The notes beneath the pieces are model-generated. The model was not told the DNA's origin and did no database searches. It saw only the letters and a program-made list of their open reading frames with translations. From a virus (Duplodnaviria > Heunggongvirae > Uroviricota > Caudoviricetes), in the IMG/VR virus record IMGVR_UViG_2874956758_000002, positions 1 through 30,855 of that record: a stretch of DNA of 30,855 nucleotides; one strand, given 5' to 3'. Below are positions 1-21,730 of the stretch, piece after piece. The position numbers and the translations under genes are program-made. Positions within the stretch are counted from its first letter, which is position 1. Every line of letters starts with the position of its first letter.

Positions 1-1152
1 TCATTCCAGCCCGCATTGTTGGCGGTACATTTCAGGGCTGACTGCACCCAGCGATAATTTTATACGCCGCTCGTTATACCATCTGATGTAAGCATCTACA
101 TGCTGCATGAACTTTTCTGGCGTGATGCCCGACCATTTACGCCCATAATACATTTCCGTTTTCAGTCTGCCGAAAAAGCCTTCGCATGCAGCATTATCAG
201 GTGAACATCCTTTACGGGACATTGAGCGAATAAGACCTGCTGCATTCACTCTTTCCAGCCAGCCTGGCCAGCGATAATGCCCACCTCTGTCACTGTGTAT
301 CACCGGTCGTTCGCCAGCATTTAACGTTTCGACAGCGCTATCCAGCATAGTGTTGACCAGTTCAGCATCGGGGCGTGTACTGAGAGACCAGCTCACAACT
401 TTTCCATCGAAGCAGTCCACCACCGGTGACAGCCAGACTTTACCTGCAGGGAGCTGGAACTCCGTGATATCTGTCAGCCATTTCTGATTAGGTTGCTCCG
501 CCTTAAAATCTCTGGCGATAAGGTTATCCGGAGCCGGTCCGATTTTTCCGCAATATGAGCTGTAGCGGCGACGACGGTTACGGCTGACGACAAGCTGTTC
601 CTCCACCATAAGTCTGCGTACAACCTTTTCTGATAGCCGAACCCCCTCATGCCTGAGCATCGCATGCAGGCGACGATAGCCATAACACTGGTAATTACTG
701 TTAAATATATCTGTCAGCATCGTACGTATCGTGGCGTATTTATCACCGGCTTTCAGGGCAGCCCGGTGATAAAAATAACTGCTACGGGCAAGGCCCAGAA
801 CATGCAGTAATTCTGTCAGGGGATATGTTTGTCTCAGGGCATCAGCGATCTTTGTTTTTTCTCTGTTGTTCAGGTGACTGATACTGATGCCCGGGTCTTT
901 TTTTATGATTTCCTCCGCCTTTTTCAGAATATCCAGCTCCATCTGCCGGCGGCGTATTTCCTGATTCAGTCGGGCGACTTCCTCCCGCAACGCATCGCGT
1001 TCTGCCTCCAGGGAAGGTTCGTTATGTTTACGCATAGTCTGGTAAGCACTGTTGCCGATAATTTCATCTTTCCATTTATACAATACCGCACGACTGACAC
1101 CAATACGCCTGGCGATTTCACTGGCTGATACTTGTCGTGTACAGAGTGCCAT
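1..1152 (-). CDS. IS3-family transposase, OrfA (HTH, leucine zipper) fused in-frame to OrfB (DDE domain); element truncated at its 5' end by IS66 copy 1
   Basis: 383-aa ORF with an HTH, a coiled-coil ending in ILKKA, then an OrfB-like region (motif PNQKWLTDITEF, catalytic DDE core). Stop codon at 1..3; ATG at 1150..1152 lies 7 bp from the IS66 end. No frameshift is needed between the OrfA and OrfB parts. Confidence 0.85.
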   Translation of the reverse strand: MALCTRQVSASEIARRIGVSRAVLYKWKDEIIGNSAYQTMRKHNEPSLEAERDALREEVARLNQEIRRRQMELDILKKAEEIIKKDPGISISHLNNREKTKIADALRQTYPLTELLHVLGLARSSYFYHRAALKAGDKYATIRTMLTDIFNSNYQCYGYRRLHAMLRHEGVRLSEKVVRRLMVEEQLVVSRNRRRRYSSYCGKIGPAPDNLIARDFKAEQPNQKWLTDITEFQLPAGKVWLSPVVDCFDGKVVSWSLSTRPDAELVNTMLDSAVETLNAGERPVIHSDRGGHYRWPGWLERVNAAGLIRSMSRKGCSPDNAACEGFFGRLKTEMYYGRKWSGITPEKFMQHVDAYIRWYNERRIKLSLGAVSPEMYRQQCGLE

Positions 1153-1196
1153 GACAGCCGTAAGCGTACAGCGAGGGCCGTATTGACGGGGATGTG

Positions 1197-2735
1197 TTAT
1201 TCAGCTGGCAGTGCTATGCGCCACGGAAGCAGTTCGCTGACCCGGTTGACCGGCCAGTCTGCTATGACGCCAAGCACATGGCGAAGGTAGCTTTCTGGAT
1301 CCACGTCATTCAGTTTGCACGTCCCGATCAGGCTGTACAGTAGCGCTCCCCGCTCACCACCATGGTCAGAGCCGAAGAACAGGAAGTTTTTACGACCCAG
1401 ACTGACCGCCCGCAGGGCATTTTCAGCGATGTTGTTGTCGATTTCCACCCAGCCATCGTTCGCATAGTACGTCAGTGCCGGCCACTGGTTAAGTGCGTAC
1501 GCGAACGCCTTCGCCAACTCTGAGTGTCGCGACAGGGTCTTCATCTTTTCACGCAACCAGCTTTCCAGGGATTTCAACAGCGGTTTCGTTTTTCGCTGAC
1601 GTTCAGCAAGCCGCTGCTCTGCCGGCATTCCCCTTATATCCGCCTCTATGGCGTACAACTGACCGAGCTGCTCCAGGGCTTCTTCCGTCAGTGCTGACGG
1701 GATGCGGACGTGCACATCGTGGATCTTTCGGCGGGCATGAGCCCAGCAGGCAGCTTCCGTTATCCCACCATTGCGGTACAGCTCGTTGAACCCGGCGTAC
1801 GCATCCGCTTGCAGCACACCGCTGAAGCAAGCAAGATGAGTCTGCGGATGGATGCCTTTTCTGTCCGGGCTGTAAGCGAACCACACTGCAGGTGCCAACG
1901 CTGACCCGGCATTGCGGTCATCACGAACATACGCCCACAACCGCCCGGTCTTCGTCTTCTTATTACCCGGCATCAGTACCTGGACCGGGGTATCATCAGC
2001 ATGGAGTTTGCCGTCAGTCATGACATAGCCATGAAGCGCCTCTTCCAGCGGAGACAGCAGCCGGCAGCATGCATCCACCCAGCCCGACAGCAGTGAACGG
2101 CTCAGCTCCACACCTTGCCGGCCGTATATTTCTGACTGGCGATACAGCGGGGTGTGCTCTGCATACTTCGAGGTCAGCACGCGGGCCAGCAGCCCCGGTC
2201 CGGCGATACCCCGCTCGATGGGCCGCGAAGGTGCAGGTGCCTGCACGATGGCATCGCACTGAGTACAGGCATGTTTTTCCCGTACCGTCCGGATAACCCG
2301 GAAGGCACTACGCATCAACTCCAGCTGTTCGGCGGTATCCTCGCCCAGATAGCTCAGTGAACCGCCGCAGTTCGGGCAGCACGGCGCCGCAGGCAACAGT
2401 CGCTTTTCGTCACGGGGTAGTGATTCAGGGAACGGCTTACGGGTGCGGGTCTGACGCAACGGACGCTGTACTGCCGGGTCATACACCCTACCAGTCAGCG
2501 TATCGCTCTCTTTCTGAAGCCGGTTCAGATCGGCTTCCATTTGTGCGATACGGCGGGAGACTTTTTCGGAACGACTGCCGAAGTTCATCCGGCGGAGTTT
2601 ATCCAGCTGCGCCTGCAGATGGTCTATTTCGCGCTCCCGGTTGCTCAGCTTTTCCTGCAGGGCATGGATCAGCGCTTCCTGTTCGGCCAGGCGCTGTTTC
2701 AGCAGGAAGATGTCGTCAGAAGAGATGTCGTTCAT
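1197..2735 (-). CDS. tnpC: IS66-family transposase TnpC
   Basis: 512-aa ORF with N-terminal coiled-coil, CxxC zinc-finger motifs (CCPNCGG, CTQCD) and the characteristic IS66 transposase core; near-identical to ORF 19558..21090. Confidence 0.9.
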
Positions 2736-2784
2736 AAGCCCGTATTTTACCGGGCTTATTCTGTGACAACCAGGATAAAGAGAT

Positions 2785-3132
2785 TTACAGCATGGTCAGG
2801 GAGGTCAGCAGCCGCTTAGGCTGTCGCCAGTCGATACCTTCCAGCAGCATCGCCAGCTGCGCCTGCGTAAGGAACACTTTGCCATCACGGGCTGACGGCC
2901 AGGCGAAGCGCCCACGCTCCAGCCGTTTGGTCAGGAGGCACAGTCCGTCACCGGTGGACCACAGCAGTTTAACCTGACTGCCGCTGCGGCCCCGGAAAAT
3001 GAAAACATGGCCGGACATGGGATCGTCTTTCAGCGCCGTCTGTACTTTCGCAGCCAGACCGTTGAAGCCATTTCTCATATCGGTGATACCGGCAACCAGC
3101 CAAATTTTGGTCCCGGAAGGTAACGGGATCAT
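2785..3132 (-). CDS. tnpB: IS66-family accessory protein TnpB (orf2)
   Basis: 115-aa ORF in the typical position, overlapping the upstream orfA stop (ATGA); identical to ORF 19161..19508. Confidence 0.9.
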
Positions 3133-3530
3133 CGCTTCAGTTCCTGTATCAGCAGAGTCAGGAGCTTTTCGCTGACATTGCCATTGAAGCGGAGCGTCCC
3201 GTGCCGGAACGTTACCTCACAGCTGATACTGAGGGTTTCCGGATCCTCTGCGAGCGATTCTGGCTGTTCGGCAGCTGCATCGAGAGTCACAGGAAGTAGC
3301 TGGGGGCTCTCTGAAGAAGGTAATAGCAGCTTTCCCTCGCGCCATTGTTGTCGCCATTTGAACAACAGATTGGCGTTAATGCCATTTTCAAGAGCAAGTT
3401 TTGAGATGGATATCCCGGGTTCACAGGAGGCAGCAACGAGCTGCTGTTTAAATTCGGGAGGATAATTAGGGCAGCCTTTTCGCCTGCCGGGAGTCACATT
3501 TTTCTGCATATCTGACACTTTGGTTCCCAC
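3129..3530 (-). CDS. tnpA: IS66-family accessory protein TnpA (orf1)
   Basis: 133-aa ORF, first gene of the IS66 operon; identical to ORF 18763..19164. Confidence 0.9.
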   Translation of the reverse strand: MGTKVSDMQKNVTPGRRKGCPNYPPEFKQQLVAASCEPGISISKLALENGINANLLFKWRQQWREGKLLLPSSESPQLLPVTLDAAAEQPESLAEDPETLSISCEVTFRHGTLRFNGNVSEKLLTLLIQELKR

Positions 3531-3600
3531 TACTTATTGGTGGACACCACTTTGTCTAATTCGTCAGATTCTGACCAGACGGTTCAGGCTGTACGCTTAC

Positions 3601-3704
3601 CGTTCTCCACCGACCTCTGTCAGATCGATTTCCCAGAGCACCACGCTGGCCGACTGCTCCGCACGGGTGCATTCATTCAGTGTTTCCTGCCGGATATCCT
3701 GCAT
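3601..3704 (-). pseudogene. L: 5' fragment (34 codons) of lambda-like minor tail protein L gene, interrupted by IS66 copy 1
   Basis: Minus-strand translation from ATG at 3702..3704 reads MQDIRQETLNECTRAEQSASVVLWEIDLTEVGGE, matching the lambda gpL N-terminus as recalled. Ends in GGAGAACG directly abutting the IS66 terminus. Confidence 0.85.
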
Positions 3705-7392: not shown

Positions 7393-8133
7393 TTAACTGG
7401 CGGTGACGTTGATTTCTGCAACCGCAGCAAGTTCACCATTACCGGATACGACAGGAATGTTGACCTTGCCTGCAGCAACACCTTTCACGGTGATGGTCAT
7501 ACCACTGACCGACACGGTGGCTTTTGTTTTATCCGCAGACACCGCACGGAGGCTCTTGTCGGTTGCGCCTTCCGGCTGGAATGCCACGGTCAGCGTGGTG
7601 CTCTGCCCTTTCACCACCGAGGTGCTGGCAGGCGTCACGGTCATGCCGGTTGCCGCTGTGACCGTGCTGCGATCTTCTGCCATCGACGGACGTCCCACGT
7701 TGGTGACTTTCACCGTGCGGGTGATCACTTCCTTCGCCGTCACCGCCTTACCGATACTGCTGACCCAGCCGCGGAACACATCGACCGTGCCGTTCGGGAA
7801 GCGGATTTTATAGGCACGGGTATCCCCTTCATTAAACCACGCCAGCAGCGCCTGCTGCCCCTGCTCTCCGGGCATCCACGCCAGCGTGAAGCTGGTATCT
7901 CCGGCAGATTTCTGCCCCTGCCCGGTCGCAGTCCAGTCCGCATCTTCATCATCGAGATAGCTGTCGTCATAGGACTCAGCGGTCAGTTCGCCGGGCGTCA
8001 GGTCTTTAACTTTAGCCAGACGCGACCAGTCAACGTCTGAAAGCGGGTTCGCATAAGGATCACCGTTCCCCTTATAAACCCACAGTGTGGTCCCGGCCCC
8101 TTTCACCGGCATTACTGGATTTGATACAGGCAT
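7393..8133 (-). CDS. V: lambda-like major tail protein V
   Basis: Matches lambda gpV from [22 protein letters not shown]; start chosen at the internal Met (8133) giving 246 aa as in lambda; the ORF track extends 10 codons further upstream. Confidence 0.85.
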
Positions 8134-8140
8134 ATCGTCC

Positions 8141-8536
8141 TCACATTTCATAGGTAATGACATAAGTCAGATCGGCTGAACTCCACAGGCCCGCATCATC
8201 GTCGCGCCGGTAGTCATAGCCGCTGGCCACCATACTGGTGATCAAATCTGACAGTGCCGGGATATCGCTCATCACCGGATAAATCCGGGACTCCATCCAC
8301 GAATCCAGCTCTGAATCCGGCACCTGAGCAGGCAGGAAAACTTCAATATGCAGCTCCGCCTGCCAGGTATCGCTGTCCAGCTCTTCGCCCGTGTATTCAG
8401 CGCCGGTGAGATAAACGGCAATTGCCGGAAAATCCGCCTCATCAAAAACAGCGGGGCGACCATCAAAAAGCGTCGCCCCGGTGTCATGCTTTTCCAGTGC
8501 ATCCAGTACGGCTGCACGGAGTTCAGTATGTTTCAT
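8141..8536 (-). CDS. U: lambda-like tail terminator protein U
   Basis: 131-aa ORF ([33 protein letters not shown]...) matching lambda gpU. Confidence 0.9.
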
Positions 8537-9110
8537 CGCTTTATTACCATTCTCAGTTGATGCTGCAGCGCATAGCCCAGCTCTTTCGGAAGACGTTCAC
8601 GCCGTATCCGTTCAATATTCTGTTTAAATGCCGTGGTAAGCGGCACCGCCATCGGAATTTTCACCACATCAATGGGGTAACGATTTTTCCCGGCCACACG
8701 CTGCATGACATGCCACCGGCCATTTTTCAGTTGCTGAATAAACGCGCCGGGAATACGACGGTTACCCACCACAAGCACGCTGCCGCCACCTTTCAGGGAT
8801 GAACGCTGCCCCTTTTTACGACGCCTGCGGCGGGACAGGACAACCCGCGCATTACCCAGCTTGATTACGGGCAAATCCCCCGGTTAACTTTGATTCTGGC
8901 CTGCGGATTTTTGACCGTGGCCCTTTTCAGCCTGGCCCTTTCCTTTACCAGTTTCCGGCGTACCTTTGTCTCACGGGCAACCTGTGACGCCGACTGCGAT
9001 ATCGCGGATGAAGCAACGCGGTTAATGGCCATTGCGGCGGCACCAGGGACCGCCGTTTTGCTGATACGGCTGAGGTTTTCAACGGCCTGCTCAAGACCTT
9101 TTATGGCCAT
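8533..9110 (-). pseudogene. Z: lambda-like tail completion protein Z, disrupted by a 1-bp deletion in a G run (or sequencing error)
   Basis: N-terminal 78 aa (ORF 8865..9110) and C-terminal 113 aa (ORF 8533..8874) both match lambda gpZ but lie in different frames. The frame break is at the C5 run 8877..8881 (G5 on the coding strand), where lambda as recalled has G6. Confidence 0.8.
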
Positions 9111-9121
9111 ACATCCCCCTT

Positions 9122-9475
9122 TCAGCGGCGACGGTTAACGGCAGGCGGTACGCCCCGTCCAAGCCAGAGATGACAGCTTCCACCATCATCCGGCGAAACC
9201 CGATCTACCCAGAAGTTTTCCTCACCGATGGTCAGCGTGTCTCCACGCCGCAGCTGCAGCACCTCATCAGTCCGGACAAACAGGGGCGGGCTGGAGCCTT
9301 CAACGCGCACGCCCTGTCCGGCATAGCTGATATTTTCAGGGTCATCAAAAACACCACGTATCACAGCACCGGACTGCTCACCGGATGTCATGGTGGCTGA
9401 CGTTCCCATGTACCCGCGTATCGTTTCATCGGCTCGGGCAATGGCAGCATCGAACAGATTATCGAAATCAGCCAC
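9122..9475 (-). CDS. FII: lambda-like head-tail joining protein FII
   Basis: 117-aa ORF (MADFDNLFDAAIARADETIRGYMG...) matching lambda gpFII in sequence and length. Confidence 0.9.
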   Translation of the reverse strand: MADFDNLFDAAIARADETIRGYMGTSATMTSGEQSGAVIRGVFDDPENISYAGQGVRVEGSSPPLFVRTDEVLQLRRGDTLTIGEENFWVDRVSPDDGGSCHLWLGRGVPPAVNRRR

Positions 9476-9486
9476 AGCGCCTCCCG

Positions 9487-9882
9487 TTATTGCATTCTGG
9501 CCAGGCCGCGCTCTGTCATTTCAACTGCCACACCGGCAGAGACACGGAACGCCGTTCCCGGCAGCACAAATGCCACAGGTTCATCCCGCGTGGCGTGAAG
9601 TGCATCGGTATGCAGCGTCACCAGTGCCACAACCGTGACCAGAGCAGCCGTATCAGTCACGGTATCCGTCTGTGCTGATACCACCTCATTTTTATGTCCG
9701 GTCAGCGCATTTTCCGGGCTGACAGACGTGTCCTGACCGGCTGCGTCATCCGTGTCATCAAGCTCCTCTTCCAGCTCTGCCACACGGAGCGCCAGTTCTT
9801 CTTTCGTCCCCGTCAGGCTGACATCACGGTTCAGTTGCTCACCCAGCGACCGGAGACGGGCAATCAGTTCATCTTTCGTCAT
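9487..9882 (-). CDS. FI: lambda-like DNA packaging protein FI
   Basis: Matches lambda gpFI from MTKDELIARLRSLGEQLNRDVSL; start at the internal Met preceded by GGAGGA. Confidence 0.85.
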   Translation of the reverse strand: MTKDELIARLRSLGEQLNRDVSLTGTKEELALRVAELEEELDDTDDAAGQDTSVSPENALTGHKNEVVSAQTDTVTDTAALVTVVALVTLHTDALHATRDEPVAFVLPGTAFRVSAGVAVEMTERGLARMQ

Positions 9883-9923
9883 GGACTCCTCCACAGAGAG
9901 AAAATGGCCCCGAAGGGCCATGA

Positions 9924-10961
9924 TTACGCCAGTTGAACGGACACGAACTCATCAGGATCAGCCAGCAGCATCAGCGGTGCTGACTGAATCATGGTGAACT
10001 CTCGCGCCGGATCGCCGGATGTCTTCCAGTTTTTCGGATAACGGGGAGACGCATTAATACCCTCACTCAATGCATCCGCATCCTGAATACAGCCATAGGT
10101 ACGCAGACCGCGTGCATGAGTGTTACCCAGCACCATCGTGTTGTCCGGCAGGAAGTTCTTTTTGACGCCGTTTTCCACGTACTGTCCGGAATACACGACG
10201 ATGGCCACATCGCCATACATTCCCTTATAAGACACCGCTTTGCCCAGGTCTTTTACCGCTGTCTCCAGTTCGGAATTAGAACCACGACGGGTATCCAGAG
10301 CCTCTTTTATCGCTCTGAATGAACGGTATTTCTTCCATACATTACCGCCCATAATGATGATATTAGTGACGCCCTCACTAAATTCTGCGTAGCTCTCAAT
10401 ATCATCATTTGGATCAAAAGTTTCTTTATCCTTACCTGACCACTCAGCACCGCCAAACTGAGTGATGATATTTTGTGGTTTAATATTCCAGTCCAGCTCA
10501 TAACGTTCAATACCATCGCCCTCAATGATATTTTTCCCCGTTGTGATTGCCTGAACAGCAAGCCATTCAATACGTGCACGAATAGCTTTAGCTTGATTTA
10601 CAATCGCCTGTTTAACTTTAATATTACGCGCCCCAAAAGCATTGTATTGCTCAGGTGATACACCAGCAGGGCGCACAGCTAACTTATTTGGATCAATGCT
10701 GCTTTTCGGCTTCATATAGCCTGGACGAATTGTTTTTGATTCGTACCCTTCGTCACGTGAAACTTTACTACCCACCATAGGAGAACAAAACGCTGCAATT
10801 GGGATATTTGGATCGTCGATTGTATCAAGAATAATATCGCGCGATTCAAACATTACCGAGCGAGTAAAAAACAAACTGGTAAACAACGCATTTAGTTGTT
10901 TTTGTACATCTACAGCATTAACCACCTGTACAAGCTGAGTAGGCGAATATAAATCAACCAT
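9924..10961 (-). CDS. E: major capsid protein, lambda gpE family (mosaic: divergent 5' two-thirds, lambda-like 3' third)
   Basis: C-terminal ~115 aa (from LDTRRGSNSELETAVKDLGKAVSYKGMYGDV to SVQLA) are near-identical to lambda gpE as recalled; the N-terminal ~230 aa are homologous but divergent and AT-rich. Start assigned to ATG at 10959..10961 (MVDLYSPTQL) preceded by AGAGGA. Confidence 0.8.
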   Translation of the reverse strand: MVDLYSPTQLVQVVNAVDVQKQLNALFTSLFFTRSVMFESRDIILDTIDDPNIPIAAFCSPMVGSKVSRDEGYESKTIRPGYMKPKSSIDPNKLAVRPAGVSPEQYNAFGARNIKVKQAIVNQAKAIRARIEWLAVQAITTGKNIIEGDGIERYELDWNIKPQNIITQFGGAEWSGKDKETFDPNDDIESYAEFSEGVTNIIIMGGNVWKKYRSFRAIKEALDTRRGSNSELETAVKDLGKAVSYKGMYGDVAIVVYSGQYVENGVKKNFLPDNTMVLGNTHARGLRTYGCIQDADALSEGINASPRYPKNWKTSGDPAREFTMIQSAPLMLLADPDEFVSVQLA

Positions 10962-11178: not shown

Positions 11179-11628
11179 TTAAAACGGGATATCATCTCCC
11201 CATTGCTCATTATCTCCCACTGGTGGCTGGCTTCCTTGCTGATCTGCCTGTTGTTTTGCTCTGTTCAGTGCGTCAGTAGCCTGCCCCTGTTGGCCTTTAT
11301 TGCCGCCCGGTCGCACCGATCGCGCACTGATTACGCTGTCTGCGATAACCTGCCAGCCCAGCCGCGTTTCGCCGTTCTGTCCAGTCCACTGGCTCGTCTG
11401 CATGTTACCCGCCACGCTCAGGAGTTCGCCTTTGTGATGCTTTGCCAGCGCGTCGGCTTGTCTGCCAAACGCCAGGACAGATAACCACATCGTCGCCTGA
11501 CCGTCATCCGACTGACTGCAGGGCAGTGATACCGCCATACGCGCCAGCGTCATGGGGGTGCCCTTGCTAGTCTGTTTTGTCTGCGGGTCGTCCACCAACC
11601 GCCCGTAAACTGATATTTGCGCCGTCAT
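11179..11628 (-). CDS. ssb: phage-type single-stranded DNA-binding protein (SSB)
   Basis: 149-aa ORF with an OB-fold-like N-terminal region, a Gly/Gln-rich linker and the SSB C-terminal acidic tail ending DDIPF. Confidence 0.75.
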   Translation of the reverse strand: MTAQISVYGRLVDDPQTKQTSKGTPMTLARMAVSLPCSQSDDGQATMWLSVLAFGRQADALAKHHKGELLSVAGNMQTSQWTGQNGETRLGWQVIADSVISARSVRPGGNKGQQGQATDALNRAKQQADQQGSQPPVGDNEQWGDDIPF

Positions 11629-11634
11629 GCTGCC

Positions 11635-11961
11635 TGAGGTAGCCTGAGTTTAACGGACACTCCTTCCTGAAATAGAATGGCATCAGAAGGAGCTAATAAT
11701 GAGCAGAAAAACCCAACGTTACTCTAAAGAGTTCAAAGCCGAAGCTGTCAGAACGGTTCTTGAAAATCAACTTTCGATCAGTGAAGGCGCTTCCCGATTA
11801 TCCCTTCCTGAAGGCACTTTAGGACAATGGGTTACCGCCGCCAGAAAAGGGCTCGGTACTCCTGGTTCCCGCACGGTGGCTGAACTGGAATCTGAAATTC
11901 TGCAACTGCGTAAGGCGTTAAATGAAGCTCGCCTTGAGCGAGATATATTAAAAAAAGCAAC
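11635..11961 (+). mobile_element. IS3-family (IS600-like) left-end fragment: IRL plus 5' ~93 codons of orfA, arm 1 of an inverted pair flanking IS30
   Basis: Begins TGAGGTAGCCTGAGTTTAACGG. Encodes the OrfA N-terminus MSRKTQRYSKEFKAEAVRTVLENQ...ILKKATVDS, then runs into the IS30 end; the rest of the element is absent. Confidence 0.7.
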
Positions 11962-13182
11962 TGTAGATTCAATTGGTCAACGCAACAGTTATGTGAAAAC
12001 ATGGGGTTGCGGAGGTTTTTTGAATGAGACGAACATTTACAGCAGAGGAAAAAGCCTCTGTTTTTGAACTATGGAAGAACGGAACAGGCTTCAGTGAAAT
12101 AGCGAATATCCTGGGTTCAAAACCCGGAACGATCTTCACTATGTTAAGGGATACTGGCGGCATAAAACCCCATGAGCGTAAGCGGGCTGTAGCTCACCTG
12201 ACACTGTCTGAGCGCGAGGAGATACGAGCTGGTTTGTCAGCCAAAATGAGCATTCGTGCGATAGCTACTGCGCTGAATCGCAGTCCTTCGACGATCTCAC
12301 GTGAAGTTCAGCGTAATCGGGGCAGACGCTATTACAAAGCTGTTGATGCTAATAACCGAGCCAACAGAATGGCGAAAAGGCCAAAACCGTGCTTACTGGA
12401 TCAAAATTTACCATTGCGAAAGCTTGTTCTGGAAAAGCTGGAGATGAAATGGTCTCCAGAGCAAATATCAGGATGGTTAAGGCGAACAAAACCACGTCAA
12501 AAAACGCTGCGAATATCACCTGAGACAATTTATAAAACGCTGTACTTTCGTAGCCGTGAAGCGCTACACCACCTGAATATACAGCATCTGCGACGGTCGC
12601 ATAGCCTTCGCCATGGCAGGCGTCATACCCGCAAAGGCGAAAGAGGTACGATTAACATAGTGAACGGAACACCAATTCACGAACGTTCCCGAAATATCGA
12701 TAACAGACGCTCTCTGGGACATTGGGAGGGCGATTTAGTCTCAGGTACAAAAAACTCTCATATAGCCACACTTGTAGACCGAAAATCACGTTATACGATC
12801 ATCCTTAGACTCAGGGGCAAAGATTCTGTCTCAGTAAATCAGGCTCTTACCGACAAATTCCTGAGTTTACCGTCAGAACTCAGAAAATCACTGACATGGG
12901 ACAGAGGAATGGAACTGGCCAGACATCTAGAATTTACTGTCAGCACCGGCGTTAAAGTTTACTTCTGCGATCCTCAGAGTCCTTGGCAGCGGGGAACAAA
13001 TGAGAACACAAATGGGCTAATTCGGCAGTACTTTCCTAAAAAGACATGTCTTGCCCAATATACTCAACATGAACTAGATCTGGTTGCTGCTCAGCTAAAC
13101 AACAGACCGAGAAAGACACTGAAGTTCAAAACACCGAAAGAGATAATTGAAAGGGGTGTTGCATTGACAGATTGAATCTACA
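11962..13182 (+). mobile_element. IS30, complete (1221 bp)
   Basis: Terminal inverted repeats TGTAGATTCAAT at both ends; single 383-aa transposase ORF; length matches IS30. Confidence 0.9.
12024..13175 (+). CDS. insI: IS30 transposase
   Basis: 383-aa ORF with N-terminal HTH and C-terminal DDE domain, recognised as the IS30 transposase. Confidence 0.9.
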   Translation: MRRTFTAEEKASVFELWKNGTGFSEIANILGSKPGTIFTMLRDTGGIKPHERKRAVAHLTLSEREEIRAGLSAKMSIRAIATALNRSPSTISREVQRNRGRRYYKAVDANNRANRMAKRPKPCLLDQNLPLRKLVLEKLEMKWSPEQISGWLRRTKPRQKTLRISPETIYKTLYFRSREALHHLNIQHLRRSHSLRHGRRHTRKGERGTINIVNGTPIHERSRNIDNRRSLGHWEGDLVSGTKNSHIATLVDRKSRYTIILRLRGKDSVSVNQALTDKFLSLPSELRKSLTWDRGMELARHLEFTVSTGVKVYFCDPQSPWQRGTNENTNGLIRQYFPKKTCLAQYTQHELDLVAAQLNNRPRKTLKFKTPKEIIERGVALTD

Positions 13183-13508
13183 GTTGCTTTTTTTAATATA
13201 TCTCGCTCAAGGCGAGCTTCATTTAACGCCTTACGCAGTTGCAGAATTTCAGATTCCAGTTCAGCCACCGTGCGGGAACCAGGAGTACCGAGCCCTTTTC
13301 TGGCGGCGGTAACCCATTGTCCTAAAGTGCCTTCAGGAAGGGATAATCGGGAAGCGCCTTCACTGATCGAAAGTTGATTTTCAAGAACCGTTCTGACAGC
13401 TTCGGCTTTGAACTCTTTAGAGTAACGTTGGGTTTTTCTGCTCATTATTAGCTCCTTCTGATGCCATTCTATTTCAGGAAGGAGTGTCCGTTAAACTCAG
13501 GCTACCTC
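13183..13508 (-). mobile_element. IS3-family (IS600-like) left-end fragment, arm 2, inverted copy of 11635..11961
   Basis: Reverse complement reproduces the same IRL and OrfA N-terminus (ORF 13095..13445 is identical through VDSI). Its outer end overlaps the xis start codon. Confidence 0.7.
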
Positions 13509-13745
13509 ATGGGCAATGTGATTCAACTGGCTCCCAATGAATGGGTTTGTGAAAGCGTTCTTATCGCAATTACCGGGCTCAAACCAGGCACAATTCTCCG
13601 AGCCCGGAAAGAATGCTGGATGGTAGGAAGAGAGTATATTCACGTATCACCAGACGGTAATCCAAAGCCATCCAGCGAATGTATGTATAACAGAAAAGCA
13701 ATAGATGCCTGGGTCTCTTCAATGAAAAACAAACAACCTGGGTGA
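13508..13745 (+). CDS. xis: putative excisionase (DUF1233-type Xis)
   Basis: Small ORF immediately upstream of and co-oriented with the integrase; motif pattern (IQLAPNEWV...LTGLKPGTI.RARKECWMVGREY) resembles DUF1233 excisionases as recalled. Start taken at ATG 13508..13510; the ORF track begins 16 codons upstream, inside the IS arm. Confidence 0.6.
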
Positions 13746-13800: not shown

Positions 13801-15114
13801 ATGGATAAAGTCAAATATCCAACAGGCGTCGAAAACCACGGTGGCACATTACGCATCTGGTTTAATTTTAAAGGTAAACGTGTCAGGGAAAATCTTGGTG
13901 TCCCTGACACTGCCAAGAACAGGAAGATCGCCGGAGAGCTGCGGACATCTGTATGTTTTGCCATTCGTACAGGAAATTTTGATTATGCTGCGCAGTTCCC
14001 TGACTCTCCTAACCTCAAGGCTTTTGGGGTAAATAAAAAAGAAATTACGGTGAAAGAACTTGAAGAAAAATGGCTGGATCTGAAACGAATGGAAATCTCT
14101 GCAAATGCATTCAATCGCTATGAATCCATTGCAAGGATGATGGTTCCGAAGATTGGTGGCAACCGACTGGTATCAGCAGTGACCAAAGAGGAATTGCTGT
14201 ATATCAGGAAAGATTTGCTGACCGGATACCAAAATCCAACAAAAGGTAAAGCTCCAGTAAAAGGACGAAGCGTTGTCACAGTAAATTATTACATGACAAC
14301 AATCGCTGGAATGTTTCAGTTTGCTGCAGATCACGGTTACTTAGAAGCAAATCCCTTCGAGGGAATTAAGCCTCTTAAAAGAGCCAAGGCAGAACCAGAT
14401 CCGCTAACTCGTGACGAATTTATTCGCCTGATAGATGCTTGCCGGCATCAGCAGACAAAAAACCTGTGGTCATTGGCTGTGTACACAGGAATGCGTCATG
14501 GTGAACTGGTCTCCCTGGCCTGGGAAGATATCGATCTGAAAGCAGGAACAATTACTATCAGGCGCAATTATACGAAACTCGGTGAGTTCACTCTACCTAA
14601 AACTGAAGCAAGTACAAACAGGGTTGTGCATCTTATCCAGCCCGCTATCAGTGTCCTGAAAAATCAGGCTGAAATGACAAGACTGGGTAAGCAGCACAAC
14701 ATCAAGGTTCAACTACGTGAATATGGACGTTCAGTAAATCATGAATGTACTTTCGTATTTAACCCCCAGGTGGTTAGAAAAAGCAAACAGGTAGGTTTTA
14801 TCTACAAGGTAGATTCCATTGGCGACTCATGGGAAACAGCCATTAAACGTGCAGGCATCAGGCATCGAAAGGCATACCAGTCACGACACACTTATGCGTG
14901 CTGGTCATTATCTGCCGGAGCAAATCCAAGCTTCATTGCCAGCCAGATGGGGCATGCAAGTGCCCAGATGGTGTTCAATGTATACGGAGCATGGATGACT
15001 GACAGCAATGCAGAACAGATCGCAATGCTGAATCAGAAGCTGGCAGATTATGTCCCAATGATGTCCCATGGTCACCAAAGTGACACAAGAGGCTTATTAA
15101 AATCAGTGAGTTAG
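13801..15114 (+). CDS. int: prophage tyrosine integrase
   Basis: 437-aa ORF with a C-terminal tyrosine-recombinase catalytic region (R...HxxR...Y); RBS GGAGG upstream; reads toward the host junction as lambda int does. Confidence 0.9.
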   Translation: MDKVKYPTGVENHGGTLRIWFNFKGKRVRENLGVPDTAKNRKIAGELRTSVCFAIRTGNFDYAAQFPDSPNLKAFGVNKKEITVKELEEKWLDLKRMEISANAFNRYESIARMMVPKIGGNRLVSAVTKEELLYIRKDLLTGYQNPTKGKAPVKGRSVVTVNYYMTTIAGMFQFAADHGYLEANPFEGIKPLKRAKAEPDPLTRDEFIRLIDACRHQQTKNLWSLAVYTGMRHGELVSLAWEDIDLKAGTITIRRNYTKLGEFTLPKTEASTNRVVHLIQPAISVLKNQAEMTRLGKQHNIKVQLREYGRSVNHECTFVFNPQVVRKSKQVGFIYKVDSIGDSWETAIKRAGIRHRKAYQSRHTYACWSLSAGANPSFIASQMGHASAQMVFNVYGAWMTDSNAEQIAMLNQKLADYVPMMSHGHQSDTRGLLKSVS

Positions 15115-18331: not shown

Positions 18332-18387
18332 CGCGCCTGTCAGAATCGGGGATGCGGACGATTTCCTGGACTCTCAGGAGATAACAC

Positions 18388-18692
18388 ATGTTTACTGAAG
18401 AAGAAAAAATCCGCGCCATTGAGCTTTATTTCAAATATGGTAAGAAGCTGGCTCCCGTCGTACGCGAACTGGGCTACCCTTCGAAAAGAAATCTGCGGCG
18501 TTGGATCCGCTCATGGGAAGCAGGTGGTGGCGCAAAAGAATCTATTCGTCATAAGCACCGTTACTCCGATGAACAAAAACAGGTTGCCGTTGAACATTAT
18601 CTTAACCACGGCTGCTGCCTGGCGTTTACCAGCAGAGCCCTGGGTTATCCCTGCACTGATGTACTCGCTCGCTGGGTTAATGAACTTTATCC
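18388..18692 (+). pseudogene. IS3-family (IS150-group-like) orfA 5' fragment, truncated by IS66 copy 2
   Basis: 102-aa ORF with two tandem HTH-like motifs; the ORF runs straight into the IS66 terminus, which supplies the last base of the final codon and the stop. Confidence 0.6.
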
Positions 18693-18762
18693 GTAAGCGT
18701 ACAGCCTGAACCGTCTGGTCAGAATCTGACGAATTAGACAAAGTGGTGTCCACCAATAAGTA

Positions 18763-19164
18763 GTGGGAACCAAAGTGTCAGATATGCAGAAAAATGTGAC
18801 TCCCGGCAGGCGAAAAGGCTGCCCTAATTATCCTCCCGAATTTAAACAGCAGCTCGTTGCTGCCTCCTGTGAACCCGGGATATCCATCTCAAAACTTGCT
18901 CTTGAAAATGGCATTAACGCCAATCTGTTGTTCAAATGGCGACAACAATGGCGCGAGGGAAAGCTGCTATTACCTTCTTCAGAGAGCCCCCAGCTACTTC
19001 CTGTGACTCTCGATGCAGCTGCCGAACAGCCAGAATCGCTCGCAGAGGACCCGGAAACCCTCAGTATCAGCTGTGAGGTAACGTTCCGGCACGGGACGCT
19101 CCGCTTCAATGGCAATGTCAGCGAAAAGCTCCTGACTCTGCTGATACAGGAACTGAAGCGATGA
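18763..19164 (+). CDS. tnpA: IS66-family TnpA (orf1)
   Basis: 133 aa, identical to 3129..3530 product. Confidence 0.9.
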   Translation: MGTKVSDMQKNVTPGRRKGCPNYPPEFKQQLVAASCEPGISISKLALENGINANLLFKWRQQWREGKLLLPSSESPQLLPVTLDAAAEQPESLAEDPETLSISCEVTFRHGTLRFNGNVSEKLLTLLIQELKR

Positions 19165-19508
19165 TCCCGTTACCTTCCGGGACCAAAATTTGGCTGGTTG
19201 CCGGTATCACCGATATGAGAAATGGCTTCAACGGTCTGGCTGCGAAAGTACAGACGGCGCTGAAAGACGATCCCATGTCCGGCCATGTTTTCATTTTCCG
19301 GGGCCGCAGCGGCAGTCAGGTTAAACTGCTGTGGTCCACCGGTGACGGACTGTGCCTCCTGACCAAACGGCTGGAGCGTGGGCGCTTCGCCTGGCCGTCA
19401 GCCCGTGATGGCAAAGTGTTCCTTACGCAGGCGCAGCTGGCGATGCTGCTGGAAGGTATCGACTGGCGACAGCCTAAGCGGCTGCTGACCTCCCTGACCA
19501 TGCTGTAA
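19161..19508 (+). CDS. tnpB: IS66-family TnpB (orf2)
   Basis: 115 aa, identical to 2785..3132 product. Confidence 0.9.
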
Positions 19509-19557
19509 ATCTCTTTATCCTGGTTGTCACAGAATAAGCCCGGTAAAATACGGGCTT

Positions 19558-21090
19558 ATGAACGACATCTCTTCTGACGACATCTTCCTGCTGAAACAGC
19601 GCCTGGCCGAACAGGAGATCCACGCCCTGCAGGAAAAGCTGAGCAACCGGGAGCGCGAAATAGACCATCTGCAGGCGCAGCTGGATAAACTCCGCCGGAT
19701 GAACTTCGGCAGTCGTTCCGAAAAAGTCTCCCGCCGTATCGCACAAATGGAAGCCGATCTGAACCGGCTTCAGAAAGAGAGCGATACGCTGACTGGTAGG
19801 GTGTATGACCCGGCAGTACAGCGTCCGTTGCGTCAGACCCGCACCCGTAAGCCGTTCCCTGAATCACTACCCCGTGACGAAAAGCGACTGTTGCCTGTGG
19901 CGCCGTGCTGCCCGAACTGCGGCGGTTCACTGAGCTATCTGGGCGAGGATACCGCCGAACAGCTGGAGTTGATGCGTAGTGCCTTCCGGGTTATCCGGAC
20001 GGTACGGGAAAAACATGCCTGTACTCAGTGCGATGCCATCGTGCAGGCACCTGCACCTTCGCGGCCCATCGAGCGGGGTATCGCCGGACCGGGGCTGCTG
20101 GCCCGCGTGCTGACCTCGAAGTATGCAGAGCACACCCCGCTGTATCGCCAGTCAGAAATATACGGCCGGCAAGGTGTGGAGCTGAGCCGTTCACTGCTGT
20201 CGGGCTGGGTGGATGCATGCTGCCGGCTGCTGTCTCCGCTGGAAGAGGCGCTTCATGGCTATGTCATGACTGACGGCAAACTCCATGCTGATGATACCCC
20301 GGTCCAGGTACTGATGCCGGGTAATAAGAAGACGAAGACCGGGCGGTTGTGGGCGTATGTTCGTGATGACCGCAATGCCGGGTCAGCGTTGGCACCTGCA
20401 GTGTGGTTCGCTTACAGCCCGGACAGAAAAGGCATCCATCCGCAGACTCATCTTGCTTGCTTCAGCGGTGTGCTGCAAGCGGATGCGTACGCCGGGTTCA
20501 ACGAGCTGTACCGCAATGGTGGGATAACGGAAGCTGCCTGCTGGGCTCATGCCCGCCGAAAGATCCACGATGTGCACGTCCGCATCCCGTCAGCACTGAC
20601 GGAAGAAGCCCTGGAGCAGCTCGGTCAGTTGTACGCCATAGAGGCGGATATAAGGGGAATGCCGGCAGAGCAGCGGCTTGCTGAACGTCAGCGAAAAACG
20701 AAACCGCTGTTGAAATCCCTGGAAAGCTGGTTGCGTGAAAAGATGAAGACCCTGTCGCGACACTCAGAGTTGGCGAAGGCGTTCGCGTACGCACTTAACC
20801 AGTGGCCGGCACTGACGTACTATGCGAACGATGGCTGGGTGGAAATCGACAACAACATCGCTGAAAATGCCCTGCGGGCGGTCAGTCTGGGTCGTAAAAA
20901 CTTCCTGTTCTTCGGCTCTGACCATGGTGGTGAGCGGGGAGCGCTACTGTACAGCCTGATCGGGACGTGCAAACTGAATGACGTGGATCCAGAAAGCTAC
21001 CTTCGCCATGTGCTTGGCGTCATAGCAGACTGGCCGGTCAACCGGGTCAGCGAACTGCTTCCGTGGCGCATAGCACTGCCAGCTGAATAA
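19558..21090 (+). CDS. tnpC: IS66-family transposase TnpC
   Basis: 510 aa; versus copy 1 lacks two codons (EQEIHALQ vs [10 protein letters not shown]) and has A for V at one position (PAAPCC vs PVAPCC). Confidence 0.9.
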
Positions 21091-21127
21091 CACATCCCCG
21101 TCAATACGGCCCTCGCTGTACGCTTAC

Positions 21128-21730
21128 GGAGAACGTTATTTTTTCTGTAATGAGCAGAACGAAAAAGGTGAGCCGGTCACCTGGCAGGGGCGACAGTATC
21201 AGCCGTATCCCATTCAGGGGAGTGGTTTTGAACTGAATGGCAAAGGCACCAGTACGCGCCCCACGCTGACGGTTTCTAACCTGTTCGGTATGGTCACCGG
21301 GATGGCGGAAGATCTGCAGAGTCTGGTCGGCGGAACGGTGGTCCGGCGTAAGGTTTACGCCCGTTTTCTGGATGCGGTGAACTTCGTCAACGGAAACAGT
21401 GACGCCGATCCGGAGCAGGAGGTGATCAGCCGCTGGCGCATTGAGCAGTGCAGCGAACTGAGCGCGGTGAGTGCCTCTTTTGTACTGTCCACGCCGACGG
21501 AAACGGACGGCGCTGTTTTTCCGGGACGTATCATGCTGGCCAACACCTGCACCTGGACCTATCGCGGCGATGAGTGCGGTTATCACGGTCCGGCGGTCGC
21601 GGATGAATATGACCAGCCAACGTCCGATATCACGAAGGATAAATGCAGCAAATGCCTGAGCGGTTGTAAGTTCCGCAATAACGTCGGCAACTTTGGCGGC
21701 TTCCTTTCCATTAACAAACTTTCGCAGTAA
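21128..21730 (+). pseudogene. L: 3' fragment of lambda-like minor tail protein L gene, separated from its 5' end by IS66 and inversion
   Basis: In-frame translation from 21128 reads GERYFFCNEQNEKGEPVTWQGRQYQPYPIQGSGFELNGKGTSTRPTLTVSNL...SINKLSQ, matching lambda gpL residues ~33 to the end. Begins with GGAGAACG, the same 8 bp that end the 5' fragment at 3601..3608. Confidence 0.9.

Follow-up and report, generated by a model that had tools for sequence, protein, structure and literature searches.

The stretch of DNA analysed here, the 30,855 nucleotides of IMG/VR record IMGVR_UViG_2874956758_000002 (positions 1 to 30,855; Caudoviricetes; hereafter the window), carries between its ssb and xis genes a complete copy of the insertion sequence (IS) IS30, enclosed by two inverted and identical left ends of IS600, an element of the IS3 family. 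This unit is most likely the scar of a deletion internal to a prophage: an IS30-linked event between two convergent IS600 copies probably removed the prophage DNA that once separated ssb from xis.

Structure of the IS600-IS30-IS600 unit

The whole unit measures 1,875 bp and reads IS600(1-327), IS30, inverted IS600(1-327), i.e. a perfect inverted repeat of 327 bp around a spacer of 1.2 kb. Its left arm (11635-11961, plus strand) comprises the left terminal repeat of IS600, the promoter region of orfA, and orfA codons 1-87 with two further nucleotides, and ends at the IS30 target. The second copy (13183-13509, minus strand), once reverse-complemented, is identical to the left arm at 327 of 327 positions. 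Both arms correspond to nt 1-327 of annotated IS600 (99.7% and 100% identity to the copies in loci L016 and L018, respectively), and by left terminal repeat and orfA both can be assigned to this element; the OrfA fragment of the left arm also matches the IS3 transposase model in a profile search. In a repeat search of the window, the inverted repeat extends to 353 nt (11635-11987 and 13157-13509, 99% complementary), with all three mismatches inside the 26-bp terminal repeats of IS30. A perfect 327-nt inverted repeat cannot be of chance origin. Neither arm is a complete, 1,264-bp IS600: only nt 1-327 are there, twice, and the 3' remainder (nt 328-1264, with orfB and the right terminal repeat) was found nowhere in the 30.8-kb window.

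IS30 itself (11962-13182, plus strand) has the properties expected of its family: a length of 1,221 bp, imperfect 26-bp terminal repeats (23/26 matching), and a single intact transposase gene of 383 amino acids (aa) (12024-13175, plus strand; NF033563, IS30 family transposase, 276 bits against a cut-off of 80). It is identical to the K-12 copies at 1218-1219 of 1221 positions (99.8% to IS30A, IS30C and IS30D). The junctions read ...TTAAAAAAAGCAAC, then IS30, then GTTGCTTTTTTTAA..., and the half-site TTAAAAAAAGCAAC (11948-11961, plus strand) contains the A7G frameshift motif of orfA (A run at 11950-11956) and the target dinucleotide AC. The dinucleotides beside IS30 are AC and GT, hence inverted and not a direct 2-bp target duplication, as expected of a rearrangement product.

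A sequence-only reading of the window had proposed a complete IS30 between two inverted and identical IS600 left ends, joined to IS30 at the same IS600 nucleotide on either side and with the IS600 3' part missing; it had also held that this was no simple IS30 insertion and that IS30 was implicated in a rearrangement. All of this is confirmed by the arms and junctions described above. Two details needed correction, as the right arm ends at 13509 and not 13508 (327 bp per arm instead of about 326), and the residues VDSI, taken as part of the OrfA N-terminus, are encoded by the IS30 ends and not by IS600.

The promoter side of orfA is retained in both arms, each of which has a chimeric OrfA-like open reading frame (ORF). 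The ORF of 122 aa at the left junction (11699-12067, plus strand) consists of OrfA residues 1-87, a split Thr-88 codon completed by the first base of IS30, and read-through of the IS30 left end. Its counterpart of 116 aa (13095-13445, minus strand) likewise joins OrfA residues 1-87 and a split Thr-88 codon, completed by an IS30 base, to read-through of the IS30 right end, and is antisense to the 3' end of the IS30 transposase gene. A regulatory role of these ORFs is speculation.

Native sequences beside the two arms

On the left, the arm lies 6 bp from the ATG of ssb (11179-11628, minus strand; TIGR00621), a gene of a module of satellite or phage-inducible chromosomal island (PICI)-like type whose sequence is native up to the IS600 tip. 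This ssb-capsid module is present in 186 complete E. coli genomes, and homology to the window ends at 11636, the edge of IS600. In E. coli MLI106K3 (L017), ssb is located in a satellite or PICI-like island with the gene order int...primase-hypothetical-ssb-capsid-decoration-terS, and the native sequence across the insertion point reads ...CGTCATGCTGCC immediately followed by TGCTCTCC.

On the right, the final base of the arm (13509) supplies the A of the ATG of xis (13509-13745, plus strand; excisionase, DUF1233). The prophage integrase gene follows (13801-15114, plus strand; assigned by profile search and by the loci of relatives) and adjoins yecE. This xis-int module is that of a lambdoid prophage integrated at yecE, and it matches its relatives up to the IS600 tip. 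In these relatives xis is preceded, at a distance of 8 bp, by a 48-aa gene, and the native sequence is ...GGTAATGCA running into TGGGC. The sequence-only reading was thus right that the outer arm ends abut the two start codons.

Since each arm runs to the tip of IS600 and then gives way to unrelated native DNA, two independent IS600 insertions have been joined here. The 5' part of IS600 was therefore not "duplicated in inverse", as had been supposed: each arm reaches the exact IS600 tip and is followed by different native DNA, that of a satellite-type ssb in one case and of a lambdoid xis in the other. The genes xis and ssb are neighbours in no relative, and the native upstream gene differs for each.

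In loci L016 and L020, the native equivalent of position 13509 shows, 5 bp from the insertion point, the sequence TGAGGTA, which matches the opening 7 nt of the IS600 terminal repeat. Insertions of IS600 near xis may reflect a local target preference for sequences resembling the own ends of an IS3-family element.

Authenticity and distribution

Over 16.45 kb the window is 100% identical to the interior of a 4.88-Mb contig, CP026831.1 (L014). In a short-read assembly of a close relative (L015), the contig ends 3 bp from the IS600 tip on the ssb side, as contigs usually do at the edge of a repeat. A sister genome (L013), with flanks 99.9% identical, is without the unit and reads xis...CCCA-TGAGGTAGCCTGA-CGGCG...ssb at its positions 7990-8010. 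It corresponds to the window minus 1,872 bp (11628-13499), lost between two TCA triplets which comparison of the two sequences places at 11625-11627 and 13497-13499. Ten nucleotides of the xis-side IS600 tip survive in it (13500-13509; 13 counting TCA), and the ssb start codon has been changed to CTG. Because the IS600 tip is kept, L013 represents a derived locus and not an empty site.

These observations bear on whether the structure is real, the sequence-only reading having considered a palindromic assembly artefact. Such an artefact, or the inverted duplication of one IS600::IS30 by fold-back, would fit the perfect identity of the arms, and long-read assemblers can indeed produce palindromes. 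Either, however, would also have copied the DNA past the IS600 tip, whereas the unit is bordered by unique, unrelated native sequences. The position of the unit inside a 4.88-Mb contig, the break of the independent short-read contig next to the ssb-side IS600 end, and the microhomology deletion of the sister genome, with its remaining xis-side tip, also argue against an origin of this kind, which we consider very improbable.

The version of the unit with two IS600 arms is absent, in both its 5'/5' and its 3'/3' form, from 5,426 complete E. coli genomes, so that the structure appears to be confined to one small lineage. From this absence and from the IS load alone, the background may be Shigella or enteroinvasive E. 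coli. Rows of strain JNEC-KY203 with 100% coverage were examined as 5'/5' or 3'/3' units and rejected, their coverage being a piece-joining effect of a neighbouring IS600. The exact ssb protein is encoded on four contigs only, among them L014 with the intact unit, at least L013 as deletion derivative, and L015, cut at the IS600 boundary.

The inverted pair of IS600 terminal repeats might formally serve as transposon ends, in which case the unit would be a non-autonomous composite, IS30 with an IS600 left end on either side, that IS600 transposase had moved to a position between xis and ssb. The outer flanks, however, are GCC and TGG and so lack the 3-bp target duplication seen in 8 of the 9 intact IS600 of the fetched loci. 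This lack, together with the fact that xis and ssb are not natural neighbours and have different native upstream genes, means that the unit cannot have entered as a composite element. The derived nature of the apparent empty site in L013 and the count of 0/5,426 complete genomes point the same way, leaving this explanation scarcely credible.

A recurrent IS30 target in IS3-family elements

Both junctions are located just 3' of the A7G frameshift motif of orfA, at the site TTAAAAAAAGCA followed by AC. The IS600 target is an imperfect palindrome, AAAAAAAGCA-AC-AGCGTATTTT, and across IS3-family elements it lies directly 3' of the A6-7G slippery motif. Simple insertions of IS30 into IS600 are found at the same nucleotide, with a 2-bp AC duplication and in both IS30 orientations: the opposite orientation in E. 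coli JNEC-KY203 (L001), and the same orientation in loci L003-L012. Public assemblies contain the 122-aa fusion protein of the left junction in 14,496 indexed blocks; all ten of the places shown for it are same-orientation IS600-IS30 junctions.

Other elements of the family are affected at the homologous codon. In K-12, IS30A is inserted in IS911A (...TTAAAAAAGGCT-AC, IS30, AC-CGCG, with AC duplicated), and an element of the insX type, called ISX here and listed as ISEhe3 (PMC3032704), is joined to IS30 in the K-12 CP4-6 region and elsewhere. A similar half-site, TTAATAAAGGTA followed by CT, is evident for IS30C in ydbA of K-12, a target that is not an IS. From these junction sequences, IS30 has used the site repeatedly and independently: it is found there in either orientation in IS600, in two cases in IS911, and also in ISX. 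Such a recurrent target in IS3-family elements accounts for the identical junction nucleotide in the two arms.

Natural IS30 hot spots have been described as conforming to a 24-bp symmetric consensus (Olasz 1998, as cited in PMC12445084), and the palindromic IS600 site appears to fit that description as regards the stated symmetry. Junctions of two IS30 inverted repeats (IR-IR junctions) attack hot spots with a 2-bp stagger, giving deletions and inversions (PMC9333248). No description of IS30 targeting of IS3-family frameshift sites, or of the IS600/IS30 structure, was found in the searchable literature, and that the hot spot is general to IS600, IS911 and ISX may be regarded as mildly novel.

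A Shigella-like genome (L029) features a pair of IS600::IS30 elements (1-1710 and 7691-10070) within a single yecE prophage; about 7 kb separates them, and one lies within int. The nested element, present there in more than one copy, may have been either mobilised as a unit or re-created by repeated insertion at the hot spot.

Probable origin of the unit by deletion

The genes on both sides of the unit are oriented as in a single canonical prophage: those for tail and head lie on the minus strand, and xis-int reads on the plus strand towards yecE. We infer the following course of events. Two IS600 copies would have inserted independently and in convergent orientation into a degenerating yecE prophage, one 6 bp upstream of ssb and the other at the start codon of xis. 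IS30 would then have entered the hot spot of the ssb-side IS600, in the common same-orientation form, and an IR-IR junction of IS30, present as a tandem dimer or a circle, would have attacked the hot spot of the intact xis-side IS600 intramolecularly. The resulting deletion would have eliminated both IS600 3' parts and all intervening DNA, leaving one 5' part, IS30 and the other 5' part in inverse, with AC and GT at the junctions. Given that the left junction is of the very common same-orientation type, one occupied IS600 and one intact target would suffice. The anatomy, the native flanks, the reuse of the target site, the analogous chimeras and the later loss in L013 are established by sequence, while the order of events and the choice of deletion over inversion and of transposition over homologous recombination are deduced.

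A deletion of the same interval might also have followed from a RecA-dependent crossover between directly repeated IS30 copies, one in each IS600 hot spot, provided that IS30 had inserted separately into both IS600 copies and in opposite orientations relative to them. Both IS30 orientations at the IS600 site do occur in nature, and genomes with two IS600::IS30 in one yecE prophage exist, as in L029. Nevertheless, the xis copy would have had to carry the opposite-orientation form, which among the fetched loci is present as a simple insertion only in JNEC-KY203; E. coli OkiPb01676 (L034) and two similar rows contain the opposite-orientation junction of IS30 with the IS600 3' part only within a chimera. 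The fusion ORF of the same-orientation form, in contrast, is abundant in public assemblies. One more insertion event would also be required. The crossover is ranked second because of this orientation and this extra insertion: it is possible but clearly less probable, and intramolecular transposition targeted to a hot spot is modestly favoured over recombination of two IS30 copies.

IS30 yields inversions as well as deletions (PMC9333248), and its action on a pair of IS600 in direct orientation could have left the 5'/5' junction here and a 3'-IS30-3' junction elsewhere in the genome. The tail-to-tail type of junction expected from such an event is indeed found in another E. coli (L034), and the region itself underwent another IS-mediated inversion, via an IS66-family pair (see below). 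An inversion at the unit is unlikely all the same, as the flanking genes are already oriented as in one internally deleted prophage, so that a prior inverted arrangement would be required, and no IS600 3' part is found within 30 kb. With canonical orientation on both sides, a deletion needs no extra step and is preferred. Of the IS30-driven inversion/duplication or deletion-inversion put forward in the sequence-only reading, the part played by IS30 can be retained; the duplication cannot, and a simple deletion is more parsimonious than an inversion.

Several points weigh against the proposed deletion by IS30. An intact IS600 at either insertion point was seen in no genome examined, and no intermediate is documented. 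The exact junctions of ssb with IS600 and of IS600 with xis gave 0 matches in metagenome contigs and species-representative genomes, and an xis-side IS600 at the same position was present in 0 of the ten xis places shown (25 contigs read, 1,571 indexed blocks). Strain FDAARGOS_943 (L018) was considered as carrying the intact ancestor of the xis-side IS600 and rejected: its IS600 sits 44 bp deeper in xis, the prophage around it is no more than 96% identical, and it represents an independent insertion. Furthermore, transposition and homologous recombination predict an identical final sequence, a reciprocal 3'-IS30-3' junction, the sign of an inversion, is possible outside the window in the source genome, and the likeness of the IS30 target to the 24-bp consensus concerns the published description and not the consensus sequence.

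Other rearrangements in the window

Two IS66-family elements, 100% identical, are found in inverted orientation in the window (copy A, 1158-3600, minus strand; copy B, 18693-21129, plus strand). The 8-bp sequence GGAGAACG is located to the right of copy B (21130-21137), with its reverse complement to the right of copy A (3601-3608). This split target duplication indicates that the 15-kb segment 3601-18692 was inverted by recombination between the copies. The inverted segment holds tail genes, ssb, the IS unit, xis-int and yecE-cmoB, and prophage tail genes resume from 21130 onwards. No matching 8-bp duplication was seen at the left-flank pair of the two copies. Another IS3-family element is present in two halves (6-1159, minus strand; 18348-18692, plus strand), each abutting the left flank of an IS66-family copy; in L003 these halves are contiguous except for about 69 bp.

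The major capsid gene (9924-10961, minus strand) is a hybrid with an overlap at 10192-10298. Its 5' part and ssb share 98% identity with a satellite or PICI-like island, and the 3' part, FI and the tail genes share 96% with a lambdoid prophage. In E. coli MLI106K3 two capsid homologues are present separately, with decoration, HTH, terS and DUF2971 genes between them. Judged by these identities, the hybrid capsid region looks like the product of a recombinational deletion between two capsid homologues.

The gene for minor tail protein Z (8865-9110 in the window, 10519-11096 in L014) is split into two 81-aa ORFs, but L013 and L015 encode the complete protein of 192 aa, as would fit a prophage remnant that is still decaying.

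Implications

Taken together, the unit is a real but ordinary rearrangement, most likely the scar of a prophage-internal deletion, for which the explanation is largely conventional and the closest precedent is already annotated in K-12. It illustrates how tens of kilobases of prophage can disappear when one IS forms a bridge between two copies of another, and deletions of this IS-linked type are commonly regarded as a driver of genome decay in Shigella-like lineages rich in IS. The preferred site of IS30 accounts for the nested and chimeric IS annotations in K-12 (insN, insO, insM, insX) and in many other genomes. This is of use to annotators and assemblers, who may mistake such palindromes for errors, and leaves the current understanding of IS30 or IS3-family biology unchanged.

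It is tempting, if rather doubtful, to go further and propose that the use of the IS3-family frameshift window by IS30 is a general, selected IS-against-IS relationship, and that the unit with two left ends is a functional composite served by IS600 transposase in trans. Such a relationship, if true, would disable the OrfAB transposase while sparing a regulator fragment resembling OrfA, and would reshuffle IS3-family elements into chimeras. The unit would also be an unstable long inverted repeat driving local deletions.

Comparison with known systems

Simple nested insertions, such as IS600::IS30 or IS911A::IS30A, resemble the unit in their target nucleotide and, on the left, in the chimeric 122-aa ORF. 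Unlike the unit, with its AC...GT dinucleotides and second, inverted 5' part, they retain the 3' part of the IS3-family element and a direct 2-bp duplication.

The deletion in the sister genome L013 removed the inverted-repeat unit almost exactly, between 3-bp repeats at the arm bases. Inverted repeats reportedly stimulate a nearly precise excision of Tn10 and Tn5 (Ross, Foster and Kleckner, in the reference list of bioRxiv 10.1101/2023.06.07.543989). By analogy, the loss in L013 resembles that process; a transposase- or IEE-linked route would be equally possible. The likeness lies in the loss of an inverted-repeat unit between 3-bp direct repeats at the bases of its arms. In contrast to the Tn10/Tn5 case, L013 is a natural variant only, which may have arisen by slippage, by SbcCD-type processing, or by excision linked to a transposase or to IEE.

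The products described for the IR-IR pathway of IS30 (Olasz and Kiss; PMC9333248), which include deletions and inversions ending at hot spots after an attack with a 2-bp stagger, are of the kind proposed for the unit; they came from plasmid and chromosome experiments.

Chimeras of IS30 with parts of two IS3-family elements are evident in other genomes. A tail-to-tail chimera, with the inverted IS600 3' part, IS30 and the ISX 3' part, is found in strain OkiPb01676, and a direct one, with the ISX 5' part, IS30 and the IS911 3' part, in Combat11I9 (L035, 2262-4104). In locus L031 (2569-3719), an apparently intact IS3-family element combines an ISX-type 5' part with an IS911-type 3' part, the switch lying at the IS30 target, between GCCGC and TCTTGAT. 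Loci L031 and L035 suggest, from their sequence organisation, that hybrid IS3-family elements can be generated by IS30-linked events.

A head-to-head chimera of the ISX 5' part, IS30 and the inverted IS600 5' part is found beside cobU in many E. coli (L002 type), all 38 of the rows listed covering query positions 302-1875. It has the head-to-head design and the identical IS600 junction nucleotide, and its ISX junction is at the homologous codon. It differs from the unit in having heterologous arms and in its location, a chromosomal graveyard of IS fragments and not a prophage. All examples fetched or listed share the same annotated context, in which IS30 has transposase fragments on one side and an ISL3 fragment on the other, and may go back to a single, vertically inherited event.

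The closest counterpart of the unit is found in the KpLE2 element of K-12 MG1655, which reads IS911B 5' part (334 bp), IS30D, inverted IS600 5' part (327 bp, insM), IS911B-1. Both IS30 junctions are at hot spots there, and about 120 bp of IS911 and the entire IS600 3' part are missing, as would be expected of the remnant of a deletion between convergent hot spots some 1 kb apart. As in the unit, IS30 lies between inverted IS3-family 5' parts, the IS600 arm consists of the same 327 bp (325/327 identical), the junctions follow the frameshift motif, and the 3' parts and the intervening DNA are gone. Unlike the unit, the KpLE2 structure has heterologous arms (IS911 and IS600), hence no long inverted repeat, goes back to a deletion of about 1 kb only in a nested IS600-in-IS911 arrangement, and carries IS600 on the IS30 left-end side only. 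The same head-to-head architecture has arisen independently in KpLE2 of K-12 and in the ISX-IS30-IS600 chimera.

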